A stretch of 64,000 nt of DNA from Escherichia coli (GTDB taxonomy: Bacteria; Pseudomonadota; Gammaproteobacteria; Enterobacterales; Enterobacteriaceae): NCBI RefSeq assembly GCF_003790525.1, contig NZ_CP033635.1. The stretch is one strand, 5' to 3'. Shown piece by piece: positions 33,301 through 36,300 of the stretch (the stretch's first letter is position 1; the number at the start of each line of letters is the position of its first letter). The position numbers are program-made.

Positions 33301-36300
33301 GTGGCGCTGGTTTTTGGTCGTGAGCGTGTTGGCTTGACCAATGAAGAGTTGCAGAAATGCCATTATCATGTCGCGATTGCCGCGAACCCGGAATACAGTT
33401 CGCTGAACCTGGCGATGGCGGTTCAGGTTATTGCCTATGAAGTGCGCATGGCCTGGCTGGCAACTCAGGAAAATGGCGAGCAGGTCGAGCATGAAGAGAC
33501 GCCGTATCCGCTGGTCGATGATCTGGAGCGTTTTTATGGTCATCTGGAGCAAACGCTGCTGGCAACCGGTTTTATCCGTGAAAACCATCCGGGGCAGGTG
33601 ATGAATAAATTGCGCCGTCTGTTTACCCGTGCACGCCCGGAAAGCCAGGAATTGAATATCCTGCGCGGGATTCTGGCTTCTATTGAGCAGCAGAATAAAG
33701 GTAACAAGGCCGAATAACAGTGGTTGCCTGATGTGATGCTTAACGCGTCTTATCAGGCTTGTAAGTGCACGGAATCCCAGGTCGGATAAGGTGTTCACAC
33801 CGCATCCGACAACAGGTACAAACGCCACGATAAAAAAATGGCACTGAAGGTTAAATACCCGACTAAATCAGTCAAGTAAATAGTTGACCAATTTACTCGG
33901 GAATGTCAGACTTGACCCTGCTATGCAATACCCCCACTTTTACAATAAAAAACCCCGGGCAGGGGCGAGTTTGAGGTGAAGTAAGACATGAGACTGACAT
34001 CTAAAGGGCGCTATGCCGTGACCGCAATGCTTGACGTTGCGCTCAACTCTGAAGCGGGCCCGGTACCGTTGGCTGATATTTCCGAACGTCAGGGAATTTC
34101 CCTTTCTTATCTGGAACAACTGTTTTCCCGTCTGCGTAAAAATGGTCTGGTTTCCAGCGTACGTGGACCAGGCGGTGGTTATCTGTTAGGCAAAGATGCC
34201 AGCAGCATCGCCGTTGGCGAAGTGATTAGCGCCGTTGACGAATCTGTAGATGCCACCCGTTGTCAGGGTAAAGGCGGCTGCCAGGGCGGCGATAAATGCC
34301 TGACCCACGCGCTGTGGCGTGATTTGAGCGACCGTCTTACCGGTTTTCTCAATAACATTACTTTAGGCGAACTGGTTAATAACCAGGAAGTGCTGGATGT
34401 GTCTGGTCGTCAGCATACTCACGACGCGCCACGCACCCGCACACAAGACGCGATCGACGTTAAGTTACGCGCTTAATAAAAAGAATTCAGAATCAGGCCG
34501 GAGTGCTAAACACTCCGTAAACACGGTCGTACATCCAGCCGGTAGCCTGGTTCCTTGCATTGAGTGATGTACGGAGTTTATAGAGCAATGAAATTACCGA
34601 TTTATCTCGACTACTCCGCAACCACGCCGGTGGACCCGCGTGTTGCCGAGAAAATGATGCAGTTTATGACGATGGACGGAACCTTTGGTAACCCGGCCTC
34701 CCGTTCTCACCGTTTCGGCTGGCAGGCTGAAGAAGCGGTTGATATCGCCCGTAATCAGATTGCAGATCTGGTCGGCGCTGACCCGCGTGAAATCGTCTTT
34801 ACCTCTGGTGCAACCGAATCTGACAACCTGGCGATCAAAGGTGCAGCCAACTTTTATCAGAAAAAAGGCAAGCACATCATCACCAGCAAAACCGAACACA
34901 AAGCGGTACTGGATACCTGCCGTCAGCTGGAGCGCGAAGGTTTCGAAGTCACCTACCTGGCACCGCAGCGTAACGGCATTATCGACCTGAAAGAACTTGA
35001 AGCAGCGATGCGTGACGACACCATCCTCGTTTCTATCATGCACGTGAATAACGAAATCGGCGTGGTGCAGGATATCGCGGCTATCGGCGAAATGTGCCGT
35101 GCTCGCGGCATTATCTATCACGTTGATGCAACCCAGAGCGTGGGCAAACTGCCTATCGACCTGAGCCAGTTGAAAGTTGACCTGATGTCATTCTCCGGTC
35201 ACAAAATCTATGGCCCGAAAGGTATCGGTGCGCTGTATGTGCGTCGTAAACCGCGCGTACGCATCGAAGCGCAAATGCACGGTGGCGGTCACGAGCGCGG
35301 TATGCGTTCCGGCACTCTGCCTGTTCACCAGATCGTTGGTATGGGCGAAGCCTATCGCATCGCAAAAGAAGAGATGGCGACCGAGATGGAACGTCTGCGC
35401 GGCCTGCGTAACCGTCTGTGGAACGGCATCAAAGATATCGAAGAAGTTTACCTGAACGGTGACCTGGAACACGGTGCGCCGAACATTCTCAACGTCAGCT
35501 TCAACTACGTTGAAGGTGAGTCGCTGATTATGGCGCTGAAAGACCTCGCGGTTTCTTCAGGTTCCGCCTGTACGTCAGCAAGCCTCGAACCGTCCTACGT
35601 GCTGCGCGCGCTGGGGCTGAACGACGAGCTGGCACATAGCTCTATCCGTTTCTCTTTAGGTCGTTTTACTACTGAAGAAGAGATCGACTACACCATCGAG
35701 TTAGTTCGTAAATCCATCGGTCGTCTGCGTGACCTTTCTCCGCTGTGGGAAATGTACAAGCAGGGCGTGGATCTGAACAGCATCGAATGGGCACATCATT
35801 AATCGGTATCGGAATCAGGAGAATTTATAATGGCTTACAGCGAAAAAGTTATCGACCATTACGAGAATCCGCGTAACGTGGGTTCTTTTGACAACAACGA
35901 CGAGAACGTCGGCAGCGGCATGGTGGGTGCACCGGCCTGTGGCGACGTGATGAAGTTGCAGATTAAAGTCAACGATGAAGGTATCATTGAAGACGCGCGT
36001 TTTAAAACTTACGGCTGCGGTTCTGCTATCGCTTCCAGCTCCCTGGTCACCGAATGGGTGAAAGGGAAGTCTCTCGACGAAGCGCAGGCGATCAAAAACA
36101 CCGATATTGCTGAAGAACTTGAACTGCCGCCAGTGAAAATTCACTGTTCTATTCTGGCAGAAGACGCGATCAAAGCCGCCATTGCGGACTATAAAAGCAA
36201 ACGTGAAGCAAAATAAGAGTTGAGGTTTGGTTATGTCGATTACACTGAGCGACAGTGCAGCAGCGCGAGTAAATACCTTTCTGGCTAACCGTGGCAAAGG

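Follow-up and report, generated by a model that had tools for sequence, protein, structure and literature searches.

Spot 42 on galETKM and SgrS on manXYZ are cases in which a small RNA drives discoordinate decay of an operon mRNA with a protective structure. The iscRSUA operon resembles both in that the small RNA pairs at an internal cistron and the ratio of the products changes. It differs from them in that a dedicated structured module positively preserves the upstream cistron. Desnoyers, Morissette, Prevost and Masse (2009, EMBO J 28:1551) are reported to have found that pairing of RyhB leads to RNase E decay of iscSUA and that structure in the spacer protects iscR.

Three papers (PMC12533949, PMC11572966 and PMC8593673, the last from 2021) all cite Desnoyers et al. 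2009 for RyhB and iscRSUA. In their passages on this operon, RyhB is described as pairing between iscR and iscS, the transcript's 3' portion as being degraded via RNase E, and the strong structure of the spacer as accounting for the accumulation of iscR mRNA. The experimental work described in these passages was done in K-12 and comprises RyhB pairing in the spacer, removal of the 3' part in an RNase E-dependent manner, and structure-dependent iscR accumulation. According to a follow-up from 2025 (PMC12533949), the amount of IscS protein is much the same whatever the iron level. Physiologically, the system therefore compensates and is not simply shut off.

The window, i.e. the whole stretch of 64,000 nt that was analysed, comes from an Escherichia coli chromosome. 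Positions 34400–34680 matched 5424 of 5426 complete E. coli genomes. In strain SK1144 the match was 100%, and its isc spacer is identical to that of the window. The gene order in the window is suhB, trmJ, iscR, iscS, iscU, iscA, hscB, hscA, fdx and iscX. The features on either side of the spacer and the likely ribosome-binding site are as follows:

33988–34476, plus strand: iscR coding sequence (162 aa; ORF and SK1144 RefSeq annotation, homologous coordinates), the part of the iscRSUA mRNA that outlasts RyhB action
34573–34576, plus strand: GGAG, likely the iscS Shine-Dalgarno (SD) sequence judging from the sequence; 11 nt before the AUG and invariant in all aligned spacers
34588–35802, plus strand: coding sequence of the cysteine desulfurase gene iscS (404 aa; as annotated by RefSeq in homologous E. 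coli records), its translation start being the RyhB target

The sequence-only reading had placed a structured 111-nt spacer between iscR and iscS at 34477–34587, and this was confirmed: the iscR ORF ends with TAA at 34474–34476 and the iscS ATG is at 34588. Homologous E. coli RefSeq records also give a 111-nt spacer before iscS. For every iscS homologue found, the alignment begins with residue 1 at ATG 34588, and nearly all have an ATG there. A mechanical listing of short ORFs over the spacer gave 34397–34567 (plus strand) and 34493–34621 (minus strand) as well as an in-frame GTG at 34564, which are without support; the iscS homologues found align from ATG 34588. Sub-threshold matches to the REP-like naRNA4 were seen nearby, at 33700–33843.

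The spacer matched one Rfam family over its full model:

34477–34586, plus strand: Rfam RF01517 'iscRS, iscR stability element', model positions 1–110 of 110

The match reached 136.5 bits (gathering score 40), with an E value of 4e-37 (Rfam release 15). The element sits in sense orientation after the iscR stop and before the iscS start, and the same arrangement was found in all 16 other element-bearing genomes. Hence, the spacer is the iscR stability element, which had been described and catalogued before; the finding is correct and not new. Compared with RF01517 and the K-12 element, position, strand and helices are the same, and of the 111 positions only 2 are different in K-12 and the window, with the pairing preserved at both. 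The second Rfam family considered, RF02783 ('IscS-1 ICR thermometer'), had no match in the window even at E≤10.

The sense-strand spacer RNA folded with a minimum free energy (MFE) of -33.0 kcal/mol (z -2.83), and 1 of 200 dinucleotide shuffles was equally good. With the iscS start included, z was -2.67. The stable structure claimed by the sequence-only reading was thus recovered. The antisense strand was unremarkable (z -1.05), and on this value an antisense-RNA reading was rejected. The MFE fold is multi-branched with five helices and is essentially the RF01517 consensus structure:

34484–34488 and 34574–34578, plus strand: P1, outer stem, 5' arm AAUUC pairing with 3' arm GAGUU (Rfam structure line)
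34490–34498 and 34545–34553, plus strand: P2, GC-rich stem of 9 bp, 5' arm GAAUCAGGC and 3' arm GCCUGGUUC, enclosing P3 and P4
34499–34517, plus strand: P3, hairpin CGGAGUG-CUAAA-CACUCCG, which contains the hairpin of the sequence-only reading
34521–34543, plus strand: P4, hairpin (AC-CGG / CCGGU) with a 12-nt conserved loop, UCGUACAUCCAG, at 34527–34538
34556–34571, plus strand: P5, small hairpin (U-CAU / AUG-A), in the Rfam consensus and the MFE fold

The hairpin that had been read from the sequence is present, with ggagtg at 34500–34505, ctaaa at 34506–34510 and cactcc at 34511–34516; C34499 and G34517 lengthen its stem to 7 bp, and the hairpin is stacked on P2. By itself, P3 contributes -9.9 kcal/mol, and the 64-nt core of P2, P3 and P4 reaches -27.1 kcal/mol when folded alone. 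P2 was also predicted independently by RNAalifold. The 3' arm of P1 (34574–34578) overlaps the iscS SD.

A single hairpin of the size of P3 is unremarkable alone; the decisive evidence for structure is covariation. The comparative sample consisted of 80 iscR loci, one genome per species. Spacer length shifted sharply with taxonomy: it was 107–242 nt in the Enterobacteriaceae proper and 39–124 nt in most of the remaining Enterobacterales (Yersiniaceae, Erwiniaceae, Hafniaceae, Morganellaceae and others), with 208–281 nt in a few of these, namely Pectobacterium, Brenneria, Rahnella, Rouxiella and one Providencia, 26–33 nt in Vibrionaceae and 3–24 nt in several Alteromonadales. Of the 40 loci searched, 12 contained RF01517. 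All 12 were Enterobacteriaceae, from Escherichia, Citrobacter, Pluralibacter, Enterobacter spp., Pseudocitrobacter, Superficieibacter, Cedecea and Shimwellia. MAFFT alone misaligns the length-variable P3, and a covariance model was built instead; this choice hardly altered the helix statistics. This model recovered 17 full-length elements and added Siccibacter, Mangrovibacter, Cedecea neteri and one Klebsiella sp.

Across the 17 species, 84–85% of cells were paired and 12 pairs showed double changes, values that none of 500 shuffles reached. The MAFFT-only alignment of the same species gave the same picture. When the sequences were folded singly, P2 closing two hairpins appeared in most of the 17 species, even without shared P3 or P4 sequence.

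A metagenome scan anchored on the 3' motif enlarged the set to 75 distinct enterobacterial spacers. In this alignment, which was fitted to the model, consists of related sequences and has a 3' part fixed by the search pattern (inflating the paired percentage there), 90.1% of cells were in standard pairs, and double changes occurred in 16 of 29 pairs (122 cells). No shuffle out of 500 attained any of the five measures, and sliding the 3' partner by 1–3 columns left 34–52% paired. By helix, the 75 spacers gave:

P1: 74.1% of cells paired, double changes in 1 of 5 pairs (two cells)
P2: 99.6% of cells paired, double changes in 4 of 9 pairs
P3: 90.8% of cells paired, double changes in 6 of 6 pairs
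P4: 84.8% of cells paired, double changes in 5 of 5 pairs
P5: 94.0% of cells paired, double changes in 0 of 4 pairs

The element of the window shows no essential difference from RF01517, and the published consensus is only partly backed by the comparative data: P2, P3 and P4 are supported, and P1 and P5 show little or no covariation. This bears on the further pairing that the sequence-only reading had placed just upstream of the iscS ribosome-binding site. Such pairing is indeed predicted (P5 and the SD-overlapping P1); covariation, which would have backed it, is essentially missing there. The loops also differ: P4 had 22 distinct loop sequences and P3 had 59, and one P4 loop was shared by 37 of the 75 spacers.

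Within E. coli, the spacers were 80%–100% identical to that of the window, and the differences were concentrated in P3. One P3 allele, CGGAGUG-CUAAA-CACUCCG, is that of the window and the K-12 type. The other, CGGGGCG-UAUCG-CGCUCCG, was seen within E. coli in the three more divergent spacers sampled (strains JNE141411, 117 and FCI56), and also in E. albertii; its geometry is the same and the stem changes are compensated. E. coli has two compensated P3 alleles. The two differences of K-12 from the window are 34511 C->U, which turns a G-C pair into G.U, and 34550 G->A, which turns U.G into U-A; pairing is kept at both.

The 90-nt RyhB query had 100% identity with the region between yhhY and yhhX in SK1144 and in over 5300 further genomes. 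This locus matches Rfam RF00057 at 83 bits, and the identity of RyhB was thereby confirmed. The RyhB gene was absent from the 64,000-nt window searched. RNAduplex with full-length RyhB was rejected: it gave an unrealistic 88-nt duplex driven by the palindrome of the RyhB terminator, and core-only duplexes and RNAcofold were used in its place. The RNAcofold prediction is:

34561–34590, plus strand: predicted RyhB pairing region, covering SD and AUG

In this prediction, RyhB 40–47 (CAUUGCUC) pairs with 34583–34590 (GAGCAAUG, start codon included), RyhB 53–57 with 34573–34577 (SD GGAG) and RyhB 61–69 with 34561–34569. The intermolecular helices were always the same in three sequence contexts around iscS, with a ddG of -7.3 to -11.8 kcal/mol. 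The iscS start ranked second of 41 annotated gene starts by both energy measures in the homologous 50-kb region of SK1144. It was outscored by the start of an unrelated gene, acpS; this gene and part of the region lie outside the window, because upstream of 30 kb the window is structured differently from SK1144. The best plain duplex (-25.2 kcal/mol) ranked 464 of 25,578 sixty-nucleotide segments slid over the whole window (top 2%) and did not single out iscS. Thus, both a stable structure and the complementarity expected between RyhB and the iscS initiation region were found. The complementarity is real but only moderately unusual energetically, and alone it would not establish targeting.

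The predicted RyhB site has a different distribution from the helices. GAGCAAUG is kept across Enterobacteriaceae, Serratia, Yersinia, Dickeya, Tatumella and Proteus; Serratia, Yersinia, Dickeya, Tatumella, Mixta and Rosenbergiella have it together with the upstream GAAGUGAUGUACGGAG, and both motifs are conserved in Enterobacterales at large. In Photorhabdus and Providencia the perfect complement to RyhB reaches 12 nt. No RyhB complement was found in the Vibrio, Aeromonas and Alteromonadales spacers compared. In the spacers compared, the structured core is thus confined to Enterobacteriaceae, and the RyhB site is phylogenetically wider and older. The stability module looks like an Enterobacteriaceae-specific addition between the iscR stop codon and a pre-existing RyhB site.

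Taking these results together, the spacer is very probably the known iscR stability element, which acts in cis on the iscRSUA mRNA and is built of two modules. The 3' module (about 34559–34590) is the iscS translation-initiation region. In this account, iron starvation lifts Fur repression and RyhB is made, which pairs across SD and AUG. This blocks translation of iscS, and the iscSUA part is destroyed by RNase E with the degradosome. The 5' module (34490–34553) is a 64-nt three-way junction, in which P2 closes P3 and P4, just upstream of the RyhB site. The layout agrees with the published account: the predicted RyhB site lies 3' of the covarying core, so cleavage downstream would yield an iscR fragment with the core at its 3' terminus. 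There it would block further decay, and the iscR mRNA would persist; apo-IscR would then accumulate and switch on the suf operon. We infer that it is specifically the P2-P3-P4 junction that forms the barrier, acting as a 3' protective structure. RyhB-dependent differential decay of iscRSUA that rests on structure in the spacer had been the interpretation of the sequence-only reading; it is supported by RF01517, by the predicted RyhB pairing and by the passages on this operon in PMC12533949, PMC11572966 and PMC8593673. The observation is confirmed, and the feature was already known.

A contact between the two modules is conceivable, though we regard it as rather doubtful. The P4 loop may form a pseudoknot, UCGUACAUC (34527–34535) with GAUGUACGG (34566–34574); it would be a pseudoknot because the pairing crosses P2. 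The strands are:

34528–34535 and 34566–34573, plus strand: candidate pseudoknot strands CGUACAUC and GAUGUACG, within the longer match of 34527–34535 with 34566–34574

GAUGUACGG comprises the SD flank plus the two G with which the iscS SD begins, and RyhB is predicted to contact these same nucleotides. Of the 75 distinct spacers, 55 have the P4-loop complement (-10.5 to -15.1 kcal/mol), and no more than 1 in 200 shuffled loops was as good. Two one-sided loop variants, U->C and C->U, retain the pairing, and one lineage with an unrelated P4 loop (GGCUCC) complements the SD (GGAGCU) instead. The complement is missing in several genera (Cedecea, Siccibacter, Superficieibacter), and the pairing is not part of the Rfam consensus. 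The 3' partner never varies, and covariation is therefore not informative for this pairing. A match of 8–9 bp somewhere in 111 nt is not very rare (rough estimate about 0.1). If the pseudoknot is true, it would physically tie the protective core to the iscS translation start, and the stability element would also be a cis anti-SD switch or one that competes with RyhB.

The structure could also chiefly control iscS translation in cis by sequestering the SD, thermometer-like as in Yersinia, with the stabilisation of iscR being secondary. We consider this improbable. The 3' arm of P1 (34574–34578) does overlap the SD GGAG, the predicted unpaired probability of the SD is just 0.09 at 37 °C, and in most spacers the SD flank finds a complement in the P4 loop. 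However, this predicted value barely changes with temperature (0.05 at 25 °C and 0.13 at 45 °C), P1 is paired in 74% of cells and essentially without covariation, and the covarying helices P2, P3 and P4 do not contact the SD. The literature gives the structure a stabilising role (PMC12533949, PMC11572966, PMC8593673). A parallel is RF02783, which matches, instead of RF01517, in the iscR-iscS spacers of Yersinia, Serratia, Photorhabdus, Hafnia, Dickeya, Mixta and Brenneria (62–218 bits in Yersinia, Serratia, Photorhabdus and others). Like the element of the window, it occupies the intercistronic place upstream of iscS, and both have the 3' motif GAAGUGAUGUACGGAG...GAGCAAUG, which holds the RyhB complement. 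Unlike it, RF02783 is a separate model of 183 positions that extends into the 3' end of iscR, and the window is without a match to it. The RF02783-matching spacers were 39–78 nt long in 10 of 11 cases, and none had a full-length match to the P2-P3-P4 model. A literature search on the Yersinia iscS thermometer found nothing that mentions iscS. For the window, masking of the SD or a thermometer-like role may be a secondary property at most.

That the hairpin is an intrinsic terminator or attenuator, parting iscR from iscSUA at the level of transcription, is very improbable. A GC-rich hairpin downstream of a stop codon would fit, as would the short iscR-only transcript seen on Northern blots (PMC11572966). 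On the other hand, no stem is followed by a U-run (P3 is followed by UAAACACGG), and the literature describes the iscR fragment as dependent on RyhB and RNase E (PMC12533949, PMC11572966). Terminator and promoter scans gave no hit in 34477–34587, and an intrinsic terminator was rejected because no terminator-like site was found there, as was a promoter.

There is next to no chance that the hairpins come from a repeated palindromic insertion, REP-like or otherwise, without a specific role: the sub-threshold naRNA4 matches at 33700–33843 and the wide differences in spacer length among genera could be read in this way, but a sensitive blastn search found exactly one copy per genome, at one place, in 5424 E. 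coli genomes, on which the reading was rejected, the element always directly adjoins the iscS start, and compensatory changes are extensive.

The iscR stability element is thus a catalogued feature that was re-identified here, and its value is that of a positive control, in which the sequence-only reading was accurate. For specialists there are minor additions: the core is confined to Enterobacteriaceae and the RyhB site has a wider range, only three of the five helices covary, and pairing between the P4 loop and the SD flank is conceivable. The element shows in textbook fashion how a small RNA splits the fate of one polycistronic mRNA. Under iron starvation, E. coli keeps making IscR while cutting the Isc machinery, and Fe-S assembly shifts to Suf. 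According to the cited papers, this shift to Suf affects the susceptibility to aminoglycosides (PMC12533949, PMC11572966, PMC8593673).

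The sequence UCGUACAUC (34527–34535) in the conserved hairpin loop of P4 is complementary to GAUGUACGG (34566–34574), which borders and runs into the likely iscS Shine–Dalgarno (SD) sequence GGAG and coincides in part with the predicted contacts of the small RNA RyhB. Judged from this complementarity, pairing of the P4 loop with the SD flank would form a pseudoknot across P2, the helix closing hairpins P3 and P4. This predicted pairing is not part of the Rfam consensus. A complement to the loop was found in 55 of the 75 distinct iscR–iscS spacers compared and was missing in some genera. 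Covariation was uninformative for the pairing because its 3′ side was invariant.

Spacers like that of Klebsiella sp. BIGb0407 (loci L022, L097 and L119) had a P4 loop sequence unrelated to that of E. coli. Their loop contained GGCUCC, complementary to GGAGCU in the SD region. The duplex of this loop with the SD region was calculated at −10.5 kcal/mol, a value equalled by ~3% of loop shuffles.

Within E. coli, the P3 hairpin (34499–34517 in the window) occurred as two alleles of identical geometry:
34499–34517, P3 allele 1, CGGAGUG-CUAAA-CACUCCG, carried by the window
P3 allele 2, CGGGGCG-UAUCG-CGCUCCG, in L083–L085 and L002, common to E. coli and E. albertii
Over the 111 nt of the spacer, sequence identity to the window fell below 95% in about a third of complete E. 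coli genomes, and this divergence is unusually high for a core-genome spacer.

The window and strain SK1144 share the same isc spacer sequence but differ elsewhere. Relative to SK1144, the window showed ~5.1 kb of structural change upstream of about 30,000 and a difference of +17 nt between 32.5 and 42.5 kb. The hscA gene (37184–39034) is an intact ORF of 616 codons in the window and is annotated as frameshifted in SK1144. Upstream of the iscR promoter, the trmJ–iscR intergenic region (33700–33843) gave three sub-threshold matches to the Rfam family naRNA4 (RF02564) on both strands, scoring 25–40 bits where the gathering score is 59.5; these are probably REP-type palindromic repeats.

In several species, the iscR–iscS spacer was 150–280 nt long (L003, L004, L008, L011, L015, L024, L025, L027, L031 and L052), for example:
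L003, 1993–2122, long spacer
Where the iscR stability element (RF01517) was present in long spacers, it always directly adjoined iscS, and the additional sequence lay upstream of it, after the iscR stop codon.

The structured core was not found in the Photorhabdus and Providencia loci L021, L044 and L052. Their iscS start region carries a contiguous perfect RyhB complement of 12 nt, AUGUGAGCAAUG, whereas that of E. coli comprises 8 nt.

A separate Rfam family, the "IscS-1 ICR thermometer" (RF02783), was matched by the spacers L012, L016–L019, L021, L023, L025, L033 and L035, which came from Serratia, Hafnia, Yersinia, Photorhabdus, Dickeya, Brenneria, Mixta and one Enterobacteriaceae MAG. The RyhB-complementary motif GAAGUGAUGUACGGAG...GAGCAAUG was retained in these spacers. 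With RF02783 here and RF01517 elsewhere, one intercistronic position therefore holds two RNA elements, both catalogued, which occur in different Enterobacterales families.
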